The position numbers were made by a program, and so were the translations under genes. The notes below the pieces were generated by a model. That model searched no databases. It was given only the letters and a program-made list of their open reading frames with translations, and was not told the DNA's origin. From Nitrososphaerota archaeon (GTDB lineage: Archaea > Thermoproteota > EX4484-205 > JAAOZP01), in assembly GCA_011605725.1 (NCBI GenBank), contig JAAOZP010000011.1:1-64000 (forward strand): a stretch of 64,000 nt of DNA. Reading direction: 5' to 3'. Below, piece after piece: positions 20,942-32,235 of this stretch (positions are counted from its first letter, which is position 1; each line of letters begins with the position of its first letter).

Positions 20942-21925
20942 TTACATGCAAGGAAGCCCATAGCTATAGTAAAAGTTTACATTGCCCCAATGATTCTCTC
21001 CACCCCAGCAATCGTGACCCACTTGGGCAGTATTTTCAAAATTCACTGAGAGGAAAGGAGGCACGTAGTAAAGAAGAGCAGATGCTCTACCTCTCGCCTC
21101 CACATAACAGGCAGTTGTATGTTGCCCTGAAACTTCTTTATTTAACCAGCATGTCGTCCAAAGTGGAAAGTGAACTTGATGAGAAGTATATGCATAAACC
21201 CAAATTTCAACCCCATAGTTCCAGTAAAAATCTCCTGCTGCAGTCACCGAATATATCAAATTAGAGCCTAGATAAGCGGATGTCGTAGTCCAATCATAAG
21301 TATGGTAGATGGTTCCTTCTACGTAAGTTATAGAATTTATTTGAATCGGGATTTCATAGTAAGTTGCTTCTCCCTTTACTTCGTAATGAATTTTCTCATT
21401 GGTTGTATCATTGTAGGACTTTGAATAAAACGTCCTTAGGATAAAAATGCCTACTTGAGTCGTTTTTTCTAAAACATCTATCTTACCTTTGGATAGCTTC
21501 CAAGAAACCTCAAGATAATGGTTAGGTTTGTCCGTTGAAAAAATTGTTATATAATAGTTCTCTATAACTTCAAATGTAGCAACCTCTTCAAAGGGAAACA
21601 TTCTCTTCAAGATCTCTTTACTTTGAGGCTCTATCTCCACTCTTTTATAAGGAAAACTTTTTGGAATTCTGTTAAATTTATTTATGAATGCTTGAGTTGT
21701 ATTGATTACTTCCGGCATATTATTTTGTGGAAACTCAATTCTAAAACTTACGTTCGTGTTCATACAGGAAGGACAAAAGGGGCCGAGCCTGCTGCTTATC
21801 CCCATCGAGAATGGAATAGTGCTAATTGTAAGAAAACTAATGCATCCAATAGTTAGGAAGATCAGGAAAGACCCATATGAAATTATCTGATCCCAGAACC
21901 TTGGATTCTTTACTCCCTCTTTCAT
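20942..21925 (-). CDS. Hypothetical exported / membrane-anchored protein (AT-rich, aromatic-rich beta C-terminus)
   Basis: Long open frame; TM near the N-terminus; start placed at ATG 21925, uncertain. Confidence 0.6.
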   Translation of the reverse strand: MKEGVKNPRFWDQIISYGSFLIFLTIGCISFLTISTIPFSMGISSRLGPFCPSCMNTNVSFRIEFPQNNMPEVINTTQAFINKFNRIPKSFPYKRVEIEPQSKEILKRMFPFEEVATFEVIENYYITIFSTDKPNHYLEVSWKLSKGKIDVLEKTTQVGIFILRTFYSKSYNDTTNEKIHYEVKGEATYYEIPIQINSITYVEGTIYHTYDWTTTSAYLGSNLIYSVTAAGDFYWNYGVEIWVYAYTSHQVHFPLWTTCWLNKEVSGQHTTACYVEARGRASALLYYVPPFLSVNFENTAQVGHDCWGGENHWGNVNFYYSYGLPCM

Positions 21926-21958
21926 AAACCAATGTAGTTGCCAACTTAATATAAGTTT

Positions 21959-22146
21959 TGCGCGCGCTTTTTTACGAATATAATTTATTGGGCACACGCT
22001 GATATACTTCATGGAAATGGTAAGATATTAGCACGCGTCAGTGTAGGTAAGGCATATAATTTATCAGGTAAGCTATAGATATAGCAGATATTAATGGTAA
22101 ATACGTTAGCGCGTGCTTACAAATATAAATTATCGAACGCGTGCTG
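21959..22146. repeat. Cluster of five AGC(RY)n motif copies in mixed orientation
   Basis: TGCGCGCGCT (21959), GGCACACGCTG (21991), TAGCACGCGT (22029), TAGCGCGTGCT (22107), AACGCGTGCTG (22136). Confidence 0.6.
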
Positions 22147-22486: not shown

Positions 22487-23001
22487 TTGGATACTCCTAG
22501 CTACTACGTTGACACCGGCCTCATAATAGCCAGTATAAACCGTTGGACGAACTGTATGAGGATTCTAACGCGTTTTTTGAAAGCAACTTTAACTTCGTAA
22601 TATCCCCGATTACACTCGTTGAATTATATTGCGTTCTCTCAAGATTGAGAAATGAGCTTGACATTCCGTTTAAAGCAGAACCTTTAATGGATACACTGGT
22701 AACATTCATAATAAAAGACTGTAGGCTTAAGTTATTATCAAAAAGTTACTGCATAAAAAGGGATTTCGCTGGATATGCTTGTAGAATTAGTTTGGAGCAC
22801 TACGTTGCAACTAAGCTGGCAGGCTCATTATGCCTTAGAACACTGGATATGCTCCACCTGTCTTATGCGTGGATTCTGAAGAAAACATCCGGCATAAATC
22901 TATTCGCCACTGGAGACGAAGAAATACTTCAAAAAGCAGAGAGCATAAGAAAAAGCCTTGGTATCAAAGTTTATCATCCGAAACAAGCAGTGCGAGCCTA
23001 A
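22487..23001 (+). pseudogene. PIN-domain (VapC) toxin, frameshifted near the N-terminus
   Basis: YYVDTGLII is in a different frame from ...YKPLDELY...ISPITLVEL...LRTLDMLHL...FATGD. Confidence 0.75.
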
Positions 23002-23275
23002 AAATATGCTATACTTGGAAAAGGACAAGATATTTAACACCGTCATCATTTCCAATTCGCTTCAAATCCCATAGGCTTCCTCAACTACCTTCTATACTGT
23101 TCTTATTCCCCTTCATCTCATTTTAGCGTGCGCGGAATAACGATCTTTAACCATCGAGATTCATCAAACCCTGTTTGAGGAAGAGGATAGATAACCATAA
23201 AACGGAGCAGAGACTCTACCTGCTGCCCCCATGTAACAGGGTGGAGATATCAAGAGTAAATACATTATTAGCCGG

Positions 23276-23449
23276 CTACAACGCAAGTAAGGTTTTACTT
23301 TTTCCGACTTGCCGCGTCACTAGGTCAACTTCAAGCCAAGGCTTAGAAAGCCTTGTAAGCCAAATATGCTCTCATCTTCTTTAGCGAAAGCCAGGATTGT
23401 AAGTGCTTCCTCCCCCTTCATATTTTACGAGAACATGCCCTACATCTCT
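23276..23449 (-). pseudogene. C-terminal remnant of a clan AA (AF_0612-like) aspartyl protease
   Basis: With two frameshifts it reads RDVGHVLVKYEG-EEALTILAFAKEDESIFG...SLG-EVDLVTRQVGK..LLAL*; it begins exactly at the TAGCGCGCG motif (23450). Confidence 0.55.
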
Positions 23450-23580
23450 TAGCGCGCGAAGCAAAATGCTGACAAAATACAATTTTGAAGAGGATATAAA
23501 AAGCTTCTACAAAAATGGAGAACAAGTATAGTACGGTAACGCATTCAAGATGCTAAATCAGCTTTTGCAGTACTACAGTA

Positions 23581-23685
23581 TCAAGCCAGAGAATCCTTCG
23601 ACCATCTACTCCAATTGCTCCATTGTGTGTCTTTATTTTTTAGAGGTATTATTCTTGGTTTTTCTAATCGCTTCTCTTGTTTCAT
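23581..23685 (-). CDS. Putative RiPP precursor peptide, 34 aa: MKQEKRLEKPRIIPLKNKDTQWSNWSRWSKDSLA
   Basis: Manual translation; GGTGA RBS (23691-23695) 5 nt before ATG; KPxxxxL-type leader; core of three W-S-x triplets; divergent from the RRE and rSAM genes. Confidence 0.8.
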   Translation of the reverse strand: MKQEKRLEKPRIIPLKNKDTQWSNWSRWSKDSLA

Positions 23686-23823
23686 TTCTATCACCGTTGT
23701 TTTTCCTTTTGGAAAACTTTTAAATCTTTACTTCAGATTTTTTTAAAAAAAATAAAGAAATGTGTACTAGCTTTACTTTTCAGCAAAATATTTAAGACAC
23801 CACACTATGGATTTTTAAACGTA

Positions 23824-24195
23824 TTGGAAAATAAATATATCGGATTATGCCAAAGAAAGAAAGTATCGCTTTCCAAAAAGTCAAGAATTATGCTTAGTCC
23901 TGAGTATACTTTAAGGCTTGAATATTTCGGGGGACTATTATATAATAGGATCACACATGACCTATTCGCCCTTAATGAAAGTGCTGCTGATATGCTTTTT
24001 CTTACCCAATATTCTTTATCAATAGAAGAAATTACTGAAGCATTGAGCAAAGGTGTAAATGAAGGGAAGGATTCGGCAAGCTCAATCATCGAGTTTTTGG
24101 ATTCTCTGTGGATAGCCGGAGTTATAAGGAAAAGTGAGAAGCATGGAAACTTAAATAGGGCTTTAAGTATATTAGGAAAGGTCAGAAACTTGTGA
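23824..24195 (+). CDS. PqqD-family RiPP recognition element (RRE), MftB/PqqD-like (start TTG 23824 or ATG 23890)
   Basis: LSPEYTLRLEYFGGLLYN...FALNESAADML...SIEEITEAL...IIEFLDSLWIAGVI; GTGA overlap with the rSAM gene. Confidence 0.8.
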   Translation: MENKYIGLCQRKKVSLSKKSRIMLSPEYTLRLEYFGGLLYNRITHDLFALNESAADMLFLTQYSLSIEEITEALSKGVNEGKDSASSIIEFLDSLWIAGVIRKSEKHGNLNRALSILGKVRNL

Positions 24196-25265
24196 ATAGC
24201 CTTAGCTATTTATCAGCTCCGATAGAAGCATTTATTCACTTAACATGGAGTTGTAATATGAGATGTGGTTTCTGTTTTGTAAATGCACCACGAAAACTTT
24301 TACGTAGTCAGTTAGCTTTGCATGAGATAAAAAGAACTATAGATGAATTAGCTGGGATGGGTGTACTGGAGCTGACTATAACAGGTGGTGATCCGCTTTT
24401 AAGCCCCATGTTTATTGAAGTAGCTGAGTATGCAAAAGAGAAAGGACTTATAGTAAACGCTACTATAAATAGTTTGCTTATTAATGAAAATGTAGTAAAC
24501 GAGTTGATAGAAAATCACATCAATGTGCAAGTTCCTTTACATGGTCCAGCCCGTGAACTTCATGATGAATTAACTAACACTCCTGGATCTTTTGATAAAA
24601 CATTAAATGCTATTACACTTTTAGTTAAAGCAGGAGTTAACGTGACGGTTGCAACAACTTTACAGAGAGCAAATAAAGATGTAATTCTTAATATGGTACC
24701 ATTGATTAAATCGCTAGGAGTGAATTTATGGAATATTACGGAGCTGAAACCTGTCGGAAGGGCAAATTTTTCAATGACAATCCCTCTTTATGAACGTCTG
24801 GGACTCCTTAAGGAATTAGAGGAGGAAGCAAAGAAGTATGGTATTCGAATAACAGCCGAGAGAGCATTTTGGTTTATTAATGAGTGTTTTAAAGATTTAC
24901 GCCACATTCTTACCACTGAAGAAGGCCATAAACTTTTTACTCGATGTGGTGCAAGAGTTGGACGATATACTGAAATTACACCTGACGGATTTGTTTATCC
25001 CTGTGATTTGTCACTCGGTCTCGGGTCTAATGAATTCATTGCAGGAGATTTACGCGGACAAACATTCAAAGAGATATGGCACTCATCACCTCTTCTTAGG
25101 AAGATCAGGAGTATTAGAAAAGAGGATATGCATGGAAAATGTAGAGAATGCCATTATTTTGACATCTGCGGAGGAAAATGCAGAGTCTTGGCGTATAAGT
25201 ATTATGGCGATCTTTATGCTAGCGCGCGCGCTTTCATTTCATACTCCAAAGTCTGCAAACCGTAA
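24192..25265 (+). CDS. Radical SAM/SPASM peptide maturase (PqqE/MftC-like superfamily); C-terminal tail apparently replaced
   Basis: CNMRCGFC; TGGDPLL; SPASM CGA...ITPDGFVYPC and CRECHYFDICGGKCR...GDLYAS. Confidence 0.92.
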   Translation: MNSLSYLSAPIEAFIHLTWSCNMRCGFCFVNAPRKLLRSQLALHEIKRTIDELAGMGVLELTITGGDPLLSPMFIEVAEYAKEKGLIVNATINSLLINENVVNELIENHINVQVPLHGPARELHDELTNTPGSFDKTLNAITLLVKAGVNVTVATTLQRANKDVILNMVPLIKSLGVNLWNITELKPVGRANFSMTIPLYERLGLLKELEEEAKKYGIRITAERAFWFINECFKDLRHILTTEEGHKLFTRCGARVGRYTEITPDGFVYPCDLSLGLGSNEFIAGDLRGQTFKEIWHSSPLLRKIRSIRKEDMHGKCRECHYFDICGGKCRVLAYKYYGDLYASARAFISYSKVCKP

Positions 25266-25605
25266 GGAAGACTACATCGTATCACTTAAGATAGTTGGGC
25301 ATGAACTCCTTCATATGTATCTGGACTTAGAGTTCCTCAGAAAAACCTTCTTAACTATTAGTCCTGGTATGTATCTTGTGGAACCTAGCAATAGGTTAGT
25401 GGAGATAGAAGAAGCTATAGCGGAGGCCGTTTCCAGTATTATAGTAAAAAATATATTGGGTAATGGAGCAGTAGCTATATTAAGCCTATCAAAATATGCT
25501 CGTAGCTATAATTCACATGTCCTAAATGAAGTCATCAGCTTAGAAAAGGTACCTCGAAAGTTCTTATCTATGTTAGTAAAAAACAGGGATGTTACGCCTT
25601 GCTGA
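25230..25605 (+). pseudogene. C-terminal part of an HExxH (gluzincin-like) metallopeptidase, probably 5'-truncated
   Basis: VGHELLH...IEEAIAE; the stop overlaps the MFS start. The upstream part of track ORF 24880-25605 is an alternate frame inside the rSAM gene. Confidence 0.6.
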
Positions 25606-26813
25606 TCTCTAGACTAAGAGAATCTGCTTACTTTGCTCTGTTCAAGTGTCACAACGTCAGGACCCTTATAATAGCGGATTTTATAGAAACCCTTGCAGTA
25701 GCCTGTCTCTTTGGTTACTATCTAAAAATGTTGATGTATGATATGGGTGGTGCTGAACTCCTGGGCATCTATTCGACGCTCAGTAACACGCTCTTATGGT
25801 TTACTCCTATGCTGGGAGGAACGTTCAGCGATGCTTTCGGAAGGAAGAAAATGATTCTGGCCTGCGTACTGTTCGGCGTTTTAGACCTAGTGATGCTCGC
25901 CGCCATCCGCTTTCACACAGCTAAAGTGATTCTGGCACTGCTCCTCCAAGCATCGTTCATTATTGCTAGTCCGGCTAGAGCGGCGTTGCTCAGTGAATCC
26001 GTTCCGCCGGAACATGTTGGCAGAGCTTTCTCACTCCAACTTTTCATCGAAAACATTTCATCTATGGTGAGCTACATGGTGTTCGGCTACATATTATCAA
26101 CTGCGGATGTGTATATGGCGTTCATTGCTTCAGGCCTACTCTTTTCTACTTCTCTAATCCTATACATGTATACTCATGAAACGTTAAAACGGAAGATGAC
26201 TCAGCCAAACTTTTTCTCTGCCCTACTAAAAACATTTATTAAAGGTATTAAGTTTGTCGGTAAACGAGCTCACCTACTTCTCCTCTTAGTATACTTTGCA
26301 TTTGATGGCTTCACGAGCTCTATAGCAGCTCCTTTCACTCCTGCGTTCCTGGGAGAGACGCTTTTCCTCAGTACCATGGAAATATCCATGCTCTACACAA
26401 TCTGTGGCATTGCAGTAATTATTGGTGTTCTCCTTATTGGTATTGTGGTTGATAAATTGAGGAAGAGCCTGATACTACTTATCACTAAGGATGCCTTTGC
26501 TTTCCCGCTTCTTCTGGCATTCGCGTTAGCTCCCCCGTTAATGGCGGCGGCATCGATGGTCGCTTTAGCCTTTATCGAACAATTTAGCATAGGAGTGAAC
26601 CGATACGTGGTTGAAAAGACTGAGTCGGAGCACAGGAGCTTGGTATTTGGGCTTATAAACACCGTGAAACAAATATCTGGAATACCGGGTCCTCTGATGG
26701 GGATCCTCCTATGGAAAATCTCTCCTCGCATCGTCTTCGTAACTCCTGCCGTAACTATACCGCTGGGCATCATAATACTACTCATGGCGCTTAGGCTTGA
26801 TAAAACGTCCTAG
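25599..26813 (+). CDS. MFS transporter (DHA-like exporter), probable RiPP export/immunity
   Basis: GGTFSDAFGRKK motif A; ALLSESVPPEHVGRAFS; about 12 TM; coupled to the upstream ORF. Confidence 0.85.
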   Translation: MLISRLRESAYFALFKCHNVRTLIIADFIETLAVACLFGYYLKMLMYDMGGAELLGIYSTLSNTLLWFTPMLGGTFSDAFGRKKMILACVLFGVLDLVMLAAIRFHTAKVILALLLQASFIIASPARAALLSESVPPEHVGRAFSLQLFIENISSMVSYMVFGYILSTADVYMAFIASGLLFSTSLILYMYTHETLKRKMTQPNFFSALLKTFIKGIKFVGKRAHLLLLLVYFAFDGFTSSIAAPFTPAFLGETLFLSTMEISMLYTICGIAVIIGVLLIGIVVDKLRKSLILLITKDAFAFPLLLAFALAPPLMAAASMVALAFIEQFSIGVNRYVVEKTESEHRSLVFGLINTVKQISGIPGPLMGILLWKISPRIVFVTPAVTIPLGIIILLMALRLDKTS

Positions 26814-26950
26814 ACCTTAATCTGAGGAATCGTTACAACGCCATTACACGATAACTGGAAGATGAGCTTCAACCTCACCACTCTTGTTCCAATAAGTCTT
26901 CATCTGCAACCGGCATGCTTAAATAATGCTGCATTGAAAAAGCTATTAGC

Positions 26951-27127
26951 GTGATCAAGCCTGAGACTGCACGTGGAATGGCTGCTCTCGCCAGGTTGAG
27001 GAACCTCATCGTGCACAGGTACTGGCTGGTTAATGACTCAAGGATCTATCGGGAGGCTAAAGCCTCCGGTATGCGGCTGATTAGCAAATTCGTTGAGGAG
27101 GTGAGGGAGTACGTCGAGAGAGGTTAA
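26951..27127 (+). pseudogene. HEPN (DUF86) toxin, C-terminal half only
   Basis: VIKPETARGMAALARLRNLIVHRYW...REYVERG* with the RNxxxH motif; the fragment begins at TAGCGTG (26947). Confidence 0.75.
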
Positions 27128-27560
27128 GTACTATGAGGCGGGGTCACAGGAGAAGGAAGAGGCGCTAGAAAAGCTCCGTGAGTATCTTTCGCGGCATGGA
27201 GAAGTTCTTGTGGCTGTGGTTTACGGAGGCTTTACGCGGAGGAATTTCTTCAGAGACATGGATGTGGCAATTTATACAGGCGGCCTGGTTGAGGACCCGC
27301 TTAGCCTGGAGAGCGACCTTTGCATCGAGCTCTCAAAAGTGCTCCGTATCCCTGTTGACACCAGAGTTGTGGATGACGCTCCGCCATGGTTTAAGCTTAA
27401 AGTACTGACGAGCGGCATGGTGGTATATGAGAGGAAGCCTGGGGCTTCAACGTTGCTTCTAAAGGAAGCCGTTGGGATCTGCAAGATCTGGCAATTAAAC
27501 TTGCAACTAACCCGTAAGTCAACGCGATGCATAGGCTTACCCACGTATAGCGCGCGCTAA
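27111..27560 (+). pseudogene. Minimal nucleotidyltransferase (MNT) antitoxin, degraded
   Basis: VVYGGFTRRNFFRDMDVAIY...PVDTRVVDDAP. Expected start after the GGAGGTGA RBS is ACG. Probable 1-nt deletion near 27475 (GDLQDLAIKL is out of frame). Confidence 0.7.
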
Positions 27561-31564: not shown

Positions 31565-31828
31565 ATGGTATACATGGTATCGGTTACCGTCTCAGTAAAG
31601 GTTCGCAAAGAGCTCATGGAGCTAGCCGATAAGATGGTTAAGTATGGCCTCGCGAAAAGCAGGTCGCATGCTTTCAACATAATGATTGAAAAAGGGCTCA
31701 GCAAGGTTGTCGAGGAGGTTGAATTCTGGGACTCCGCCCACGAAAAGGCTGAGGAGCTGAAGAAAACGAATTTTAAGATTAGGCATGGTCGTCTCAAAGA
31801 GCTGCTCGAGGAAGACAGGGCTAGATGA
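31565..31828 (+). CDS. RHH-type antitoxin (VapB-like)
   Basis: VTVSVKVRKEL...SRSHAFN; ATGA overlap with the PIN gene. Confidence 0.75.
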   Translation: MVYMVSVTVSVKVRKELMELADKMVKYGLAKSRSHAFNIMIEKGLSKVVEEVEFWDSAHEKAEELKKTNFKIRHGRLKELLEEDRAR

Positions 31829-32235
31829 TTTACTTAGACACGAACATCATTATCTCTTATGTTGACGAGTTGGATTCAAAGCACGGAGATGCAAAAAGCC
31901 TTCTCAGCAAGCTTGAAGGCAATAGGGCTGTAAGTAGGCTTACGCTGGCGGAATTAGCCTCGGTTTTCTCCAGAGCTGGTTTAGATAGCCCTATGGCTTT
32001 AGCTCTTTATTCAATCGAACAATCTGGGGCTAAAGTTGTAGACGTAGATTTTAGCGACATAATAATTAAAGCTCTGAAGCTGGCTGGAGAGCTTAGGCTT
32101 AGAACCCTGGATTTGTTTCACCCGGTAATCGGCGCTGAAATCCGTGCGGAAATTTTTGCAACATTTGATGAAAATATCATTAACAAGTCAGAAGACATCC
32201 ATAGATTGCTGAAGGTCAGAATTGTCGGCAAGTAG
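31825..32235 (+). CDS. vapC: PIN-domain toxin (VapC)
   Basis: IYLDTN, LTLAEL, LRTLD, FATFD. Confidence 0.85.
   Translation: MIYLDTNIIISYVDELDSKHGDAKSLLSKLEGNRAVSRLTLAELASVFSRAGLDSPMALALYSIEQSGAKVVDVDFSDIIIKALKLAGELRLRTLDLFHPVIGAEIRAEIFATFDENIINKSEDIHRLLKVRIVGK

Follow-up and report, generated by a model that had tools for sequence, protein, structure and literature searches.

Genes of the cluster and their lesions

The window, a stretch of 64,000 nucleotides of contig JAAOZP010000011.1 from a Nitrososphaerota archaeon, carries between positions 23581 and 26813 a cluster in which a short tryptophan-rich peptide gene accompanies a radical S-adenosylmethionine (rSAM) enzyme of the SPASM type. 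The peptide gene is intact. It occupies 23581–23685 of the minus strand, encodes 34 amino acids (aa) from an ATG, and is preceded by the Shine-Dalgarno sequence GGTGA (23691–23695, minus strand) 5 nt ahead of the ATG. A 21-aa leader containing LEKPRIIPL is followed by the core WSN-WSR-WSK (residues 22–30, codons at 23596–23622, minus strand), whose Trp residues stand at core positions 1, 4 and 7, and by the 4-aa tail DSLA. The open reading frame (ORF) was pointed out in a preliminary description of this DNA and is found again on re-reading; domain searches of the window likewise place it divergently from sequences for a PqqD-like recognition element (RRE) for peptides that are synthesized ribosomally and modified post-translationally (RiPPs), an rSAM-SPASM enzyme, an HExxH protein and a major facilitator superfamily (MFS) transporter on the opposite strand. 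The identical precursor sequence is present at loci L017 and L036. The pattern W-x-x-W-x-x-W occurs in 16 of 81,246 short stop-to-stop segments of the 2.2-Mb genome (0.007 per kb), and the window ORF is the sole one of these 16 that fits the strict W-small-x triple pattern; its Trp register is therefore not due to chance. A scan for promoters and terminators of bacterial type gave chance-level matches only at the locus.

The genes on the plus strand are less well preserved, as seen by comparison with four sequencing runs from four studies (X1–X4) and with loci L017 and L036. The first lesion is the loss of one T at 24189–24190: all four runs carry an extra T after 24189, as do L017 and L036. 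It splits the RRE, the N-terminal part of the maturase (23824–24195, frameshift-truncated, with weak PqqD, MftB and WgkC matches), from the radical SAM and SPASM part (24192–25265). The latter is native up to 25220 and then runs into a foreign 14-residue tail, so that its last 16 residues, including the invariant final SPASM cysteine, are gone. The second lesion is A(GC)5, 11 nt at 25221–25231, in place of the 329 nt that L017 and each of the four runs show. Downstream, at 25232–25605, remains the C-terminal portion of a gluzincin-fold protein of about 220 aa with the pattern HExxH...EExxAE (HELLH at 25300–25314), whose start codon and approximately 97 N-terminal residues are missing. The MFS transporter (25599–26813, plus strand, 404 aa; PF07690, E 3e-37) is intact.

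The near-identical protein P0006 from another assembly of the same species has RRE, rSAM and SPASM in one chain of 482 aa. Full-length fused maturases are found in five records, split forms are on record solely from the window contig, and the RRE is fused to the rSAM in all full-length homologues. The standalone RRE of the preliminary description is thus a product of the first lesion, and the compact run of genes it described is not intact, being interrupted by the 329-nt deletion, which hits the rSAM C-terminus and the peptidase N-terminus. A 241-aa ORF at 24880–25605 was also rejected as a real gene, being produced by the two lesions. Assembly error is possible for the loss of 1 nt and unlikely for a 329-nt loss with a (GC)5 insert, and was rejected as the sole cause. 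The window cluster is a pseudo-operon, most probably what is left of a small RiPP pathway of archaea; since enzyme and peptidase are both broken, no product is expected in this genome.

A conserved family of Trp-triplet precursors

A similar unannotated peptide lies beside 11 of the 13 close maturase homologues that have upstream DNA, so the short Trp-triplet ORF anticipated next to such homologues does recur. These precursors have 30–50 aa with three in-register Trp near the C-terminal end; the other two loci have a two-Trp version (L046) and no peptide (P0017). Around 49 control loci of other rSAM enzymes yielded only two such ORFs, and both lacked the leader and tail. Across 9 distinct peptides the family motif is (W-G/S-X)3. 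Trp is invariant at core positions 1, 4 and 7 in all of them, the second residue of a triplet is always G, S, A or T, and the third is polar or charged (N, E, R, K) or branched aliphatic (V, L, I). As Gly and Ala never occur at position 3, each triplet provides a side-chain C-H there. The third triplet is whole in every three-Trp peptide, and the final core residue is Lys in 7 of the 9, the Lys-free cores being those of L022 and L038. Besides the window core, WSN-WGK-WSK, WAL-WSV-WGK, WGI-WGV-WGK, WSE-WGR-WGK and WGV-WGV-WGV were seen.

In most leaders (L/F)E(K/E)P stands ahead of P-L, in general form E[KE]P..P[LV]. The (WSx)n core originally proposed is to be corrected to W-G/S-X with a free third residue. 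The precursor is divergent from the enzyme in this genus only and co-directional elsewhere. Two precursors compared codon by codon had diverged too far for selection to be seen.

A separate clade of fused RRE-rSAM-SPASM enzymes

In sequence and profile searches the enzymes stand out well above background as a small group, and they are 32–79% identical to each other. The CxxxCxxC motif and every SPASM cysteine are kept in the intact members (8 aligned), and C375 and C394 of the Aux I region are invariant. The RRE is indicated by weak matches to PqqD-family models below cut-off, by PF05402 on P0008, P0013 and P0018, and by a structural match to SuiB over the full length: the enzyme model (pLDDT 81) has SuiB as its closest solved structure, along its whole length, with E 6e-22 and a TM score of 0.73.

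Eleven proteins form one clade (SH-aLRT 97 and 93 in two trees, both from quick searches), which stands apart from WgkB, MftC and the AhbD/TIGR04053-like proteins. Among the 25 best family models shown, of which the weakest scored 68 bits, every score falls below its curated cut-off. AhbD (176 bits, cut-off 500), TIGR04053 and MftC (146/265) are the highest whole-protein models; a further AhbD/NirJ-type heme-synthase model gives 131/515, WgkB 135.5/650, DynA 91/450 and StrB 87/500. The XyeB model TIGR04496 has no match at the window locus at E ≤ 1, and the GrrM, FxsB and AmcB models are absent among the 25 best, although no one-by-one search of these was made. Judged by sequence, the enzymes are a clade of their own, and no named family could be assigned to them by the markers tested. 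That the enzyme groups neither with MftC nor with AhbD-like proteins, together with the retention of a Trp-triplet precursor beside its homologues, upholds the view of an archaeal radical-SAM RiPP system; the kinship suggested with XyeB-type triceptides does not hold, given the missing TIGR04496 match.

Of the NCBIfam models, the SPASM part matches WgkB best, and the RRE is weakly like MftB and WgkC. A special kinship with WgkB was first suggested by these profile matches; it was weakened by another rSAM of the same genome, which scores at least equally on the WgkB model, and by the tree.

Predicted peptidase, transporter and complex model

The HExxH gene lies downstream in eight loci. In six members of the protein H135, E136, H139, E171, E172 and E176 are invariant. 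The best fold match of its model (pLDDT 86) is the M1 aminopeptidase F3 (Z 8.5, rmsd 4.0 Å over 160 residues), and the top 50 fold matches are nearly all zinc-peptidase folds, the best Z being middling; Foldseek returned no match at E ≤ 0.001, and there was none to Pfam or NCBIfam. Hydroxylases of the alpha-ketoglutarate HExxH kind (TIGR04267 type) gave no family-model match and are not listed among the fold matches, a listing that does not exclude them. The protein is best described as a gluzincin-fold, predicted metallopeptidase. M1 proteases are known to cut off RiPP leaders (PMC10885120). An MFS or ATP-binding cassette (ABC) transporter follows at every locus whose contig reaches far enough.

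RRE-leader complexes have been solved structurally, and modelling of such a complex had been proposed for this pair. The enzyme-precursor model, with a contact agreement of at least 53% and a partner pLDDT of 44, scored 0.56, whereas the best control reached 0.02. This is above the controls, but of 80 solved complexes only 7 scored 0.60 or less, as did both of the mismatched pairs that passed. The model thus weakly supports the pairing.

Distribution

Hosts of the family include Candidatus Brockarchaeota (the genus of the window; a genome of the same genus is deposited under that name) and two cultured carriers, Thermococcus celericrescens and Thermococcus sp. M36; the former has the enzyme WP_058938963.1 and the L052 peptide, the latter the L050 peptide. 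It occurs in 3 of 97 Thermococcaceae genomes, and within the host's class, searched by the HExxH protein, in 3 of 26 genomes; no other family-level match was found among 401 sampled genomes of the phylum. Window DNA is present in hot-spring and sediment metagenomes; no RNA data set is listed among those that contain it, which speaks neither for nor against expression. A role in conflict or signalling within the communities of hot springs and vents would fit the scattered occurrence of the cluster and its repeated decay.

The Thermococcaceae loci (L018, L019, L028, L050, L052) share one site, downstream of a methylthioadenosine phosphorylase-like gene; an amidohydrolase gene mostly comes after the cluster there.

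Proposed pathway and its alternatives

The Trp-triplet peptide and its rSAM partner, as compared here, suggest that heat-loving archaea have a family of ring-stapled peptides not described before. In intact copies the precursor is probably translated, as its ribosome-binding site and conservation suggest, and its E[KE]P..P[LV] leader would bind the fused RRE. The rSAM-SPASM enzyme would then abstract a hydrogen from an sp3 carbon and couple this carbon to the Trp indole, in keeping with established rSAM cyclophane chemistry (PMC11499958, PMC11851443, PMC9389541). Linking would most likely occur inside each W-small-X triplet and could give up to three adjacent three-residue cyclophanes, at −2 Da each. 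Where present, the gluzincin protein may trim the leader, the tail or both, and the MFS or ABC transporter would export a rigid nonapeptide; both roles are suggested by gene content. The exported peptide would probably be an antagonist or a signal. We estimate the probability of this RiPP pathway as a whole at roughly 0.55. Trp-anchored rings of some kind appear highly probable, and for three contiguous three-residue Trp rings as the topology we see an even chance.

Several observations weigh against this reading. The backbone of the tree is unresolved, and the closest characterised enzyme found is only about 30% identical; for these two reasons, chemistry cannot be transferred from characterised enzymes. 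Near P0017, one of the clade, there is no Trp-triplet peptide, the L046 peptide ends W-G-V-W-V with no third residue after its second Trp, the HExxH peptidase is absent from three Thermococcaceae loci, and links from Trp to Trp would agree just as well with the exact i, i+3, i+6 register. As an observation on its surroundings, the P0017 locus (L044:4940-7829) faces a second rSAM gene on the opposite strand.

Among characterised systems, the triceptides made by 3-CyFE enzymes (XyeB, GrrM/OscB, FxsB; PMC11499958) share the repeated aromatic-X-X motif, anaerobic rSAM-SPASM chemistry, and a peptidase and transporter nearby. Their rings link to the C-beta of residue 3, in the archaeal peptides a candidate link; the window locus gives no match to the XyeB model. 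The streptide maturase SuiB/StrB (PDB 5V1T; TIGR04080), which makes a Trp-Lys C-C ring, shares the fused RRE-rSAM-SPASM architecture and is the best match both structurally and among PDB sequences. However, the KxxxW motif is absent from the archaeal precursors, identity is 22%, and the score is the 87 of 500 bits given above. The Wpr group, cluster C11 of a sequence similarity network (PMC11851443), shares three Trp-x-x motifs per precursor, a WgkB-like sequence space and archaeal members. As described in that paper, WprB has a twitch domain without Aux I cysteines, a separate chaperone WprC and motifs 18 residues apart, and this description sets it apart from the archaeal family, with its complete set of SPASM cysteines, fused RRE and contiguous triplets. 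The paper also mentions six enzymes from archaea in C11 whose precursors have a single WxR/K, and the family may overlap with these.

Instead of closing within triplets, each Trp ring may bond to the C-beta of the Trp that follows, in four-residue rings, and the last Trp optionally to the +2 residue, to yield a fused bi- or tricycle. Such a fused ladder is in accord with a Trp spacing that is the same throughout the 9 distinct precursors although their position 3 ranges from K, R, E and N to V, L and I, with the W-G-V-W-V end of L046, and with the fused Trp-Trp-Lys rings that DarE makes (PMC10288494). On the other hand, the third triplet is whole in all three-Trp peptides and Lys-ended in 7 of 9, and repeated aromatic-X-X motifs are the ring units in characterised systems (PMC11499958 and PMC11851443). 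We consider the fused ladder unlikely. Darobactin (DarE) and dynobactin (DynA, NF041298) also share Trp-anchored rings, and W-S-K occurs in the window copy, but darobactin spaces its Trp two apart and the archaeal family three, and the DynA model gives the 91 of 450 bits noted above. The darobactin-like W-S-K of the preliminary description does not extend to the family: with G, S, A or T as second residue and a free third, it is not a conserved feature. The first ring of dynobactin is of the four-residue type, from a Trp ring to a C-beta.

A tryglysin-like outcome, in which only the last W-G/S-K is modified by a double Trp-Lys link (−4 Da) and the other Trp serve recognition or activity, is a good deal less probable. 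Tryglysin systems (WgkABCD; NF050035, NF050069; PMC8092268, PMC9389541) share the short precursor, RRE, rSAM-SPASM and transporter; their W-G-K ends most archaeal cores as well (W-[GS]-K in 7 of 9), and WgkB is the top NCBIfam match of the SPASM part. However, their RRE is separate and their WGK single and C-terminal, whereas the archaeal RRE is fused, the triplets are three and Lys is dispensable; since the L022 and L038 cores are free of Lys, Lys-only chemistry cannot cover the whole family. WgkB is 29% identical to the archaeal enzyme, which scores 135.5 of 650 bits on its model, no better than another rSAM of the genome, and falls in a separate clade. The archaeal loci, moreover, have the gluzincin gene and no Rgg/SHP.

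The best-scoring plasmid relative proved to be a true WgkB/WgkC cluster on Bacillus cereus plasmid NZ_CP135061.1. This unannotated tryglysin-type cluster outside streptococci, with WgkB (717/650 bits), WgkC and a MATE exporter, is found on three Bacillus plasmids. It holds two identical 19-aa precursors (L086:2581-2637 and 2885-2941) with an FEKP leader, ending SVWGKH. The FEKP leader and SVWGK end resemble those of the Thermococcus peptides, a likeness in leader and end motifs that is the most telling one to any known system and counts in favour of the main reading as well as of tryglysin-type chemistry. Common descent of the Bacillus and archaeal peptides is a lead and not a result, because the enzymes are 29% identical and do not group together.

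A peptide-derived cofactor as in mycofactocin or PQQ, or another non-ring modification such as epimerisation or decarboxylation, we hold to be very improbable. AhbD, TIGR04053 and MftC are the highest whole-protein models, the RRE is weakly MftB-like, and mycofactocin (MftABC) belongs to a related branch of the rSAM-SPASM superfamily. Yet these scores lie far under their cut-offs (MftC, 146 of 265 bits), the clade is separate from MftC, an exporter is present in each locus that extends far enough, and no locus has an MftA-type C-terminus or any mftDEF-like or client genes. The peptide family is thus different from mycofactocin, as had been proposed. A chance-neighbour ORF beside a heme-synthesis rSAM (AhbD/NirJ-like) can practically be dismissed: AhbD is the top whole-protein model, but its 176 bits stand against a cut-off of 500, in two phyla and in either orientation the ORF recurs beside enzymes of the clade, control loci lack a fitting ORF, and there are no heme genes in the loci.

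Returning to Trp rings stapled by a single maturase, our literature search on archaeal cyclophane and Thermococcus RiPPs found no description of the family, which may sit unnamed in supplementary tables, and no characterised archaeal Trp cross-linked peptide. Characterised archaeal RiPPs are few: PMC12144867 names only lanthipeptides among them, and PMC13692751 adds a thioether-forming rSAM. With nine natural substrates, enzymes from thermophiles and two cultured Thermococcus strains, the chemistry is directly testable. As a catalyst for stapling, an enzyme able to take both charged and branched aliphatic side chains at the third position of three contiguous motifs would be of use. It is a tentative idea that one enzyme builds a fused Trp-Trp-Trp(-Lys) ladder, or rings onto Val, Leu or Ile, and that a small new leader-peptidase family goes with it; either cross-link would be a new pattern and a carbon-linked archaeal RiPP of hyperthermophiles.

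Island variability and (GC)n runs

Decay is common in relatives of the cluster. G006 (L016:1225-1881) has an in-frame deletion that fuses the RRE and 45 rSAM residues to the last 48 peptidase residues, with the precursor intact, and the MFS gene of run X4 has two frameshifts. X2 and X4 also have contigs in which 23099 is joined to 26949 via 170 other letters and the whole cluster is absent. The cluster acts as a variable island. On its flanks lie PIN and HEPN/MNT-like remnants together with a VapBC-like pair (22543–23001, 26951–27560, 31565–32235); flanking repeats were looked for around the island, and nothing convincing was found. A membrane-anchored protein of 356 aa on the minus strand (20942–22012), which belongs to no Pfam or NCBIfam family, is intact in the window and frameshifted in L017 and L036.

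The strain comparison shows (GC)n runs at three separate joints of the region: A(GC)5 at 25221–25231 replaces the 329 nt, X1–X3 join 23262 to 23468 via GCGCGC, and L017 has (GC)5 at 26949. The deletion joint of G006 carries no (GC)n. The genome has 188 runs of (GC)4 or longer, mostly TA-(GC)n-TA and far above other dinucleotide repeats, and GCGCGCGC occurs 229 times against 35 expected under a fourth-order model. These scars look like a non-templated repair signature. An extra AEP primase-like gene lies downstream of dinB and a radA paralog (G000:C7:378918-379793; L089:3919-4797). Counts of AGCGCGCGCT in genomes of the genus with the primase-like gene or its fragments are 118, 88, 70, 33, 32, 18 and 6; where the primase-like query found nothing they are 0 in seven genomes, then 3, 3 and 16, the genomes being 70–93% complete and kin not independent. 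The number of (GC)n runs across the genus thus follows the extra primase-like gene, which is a candidate for the writer of the scars.

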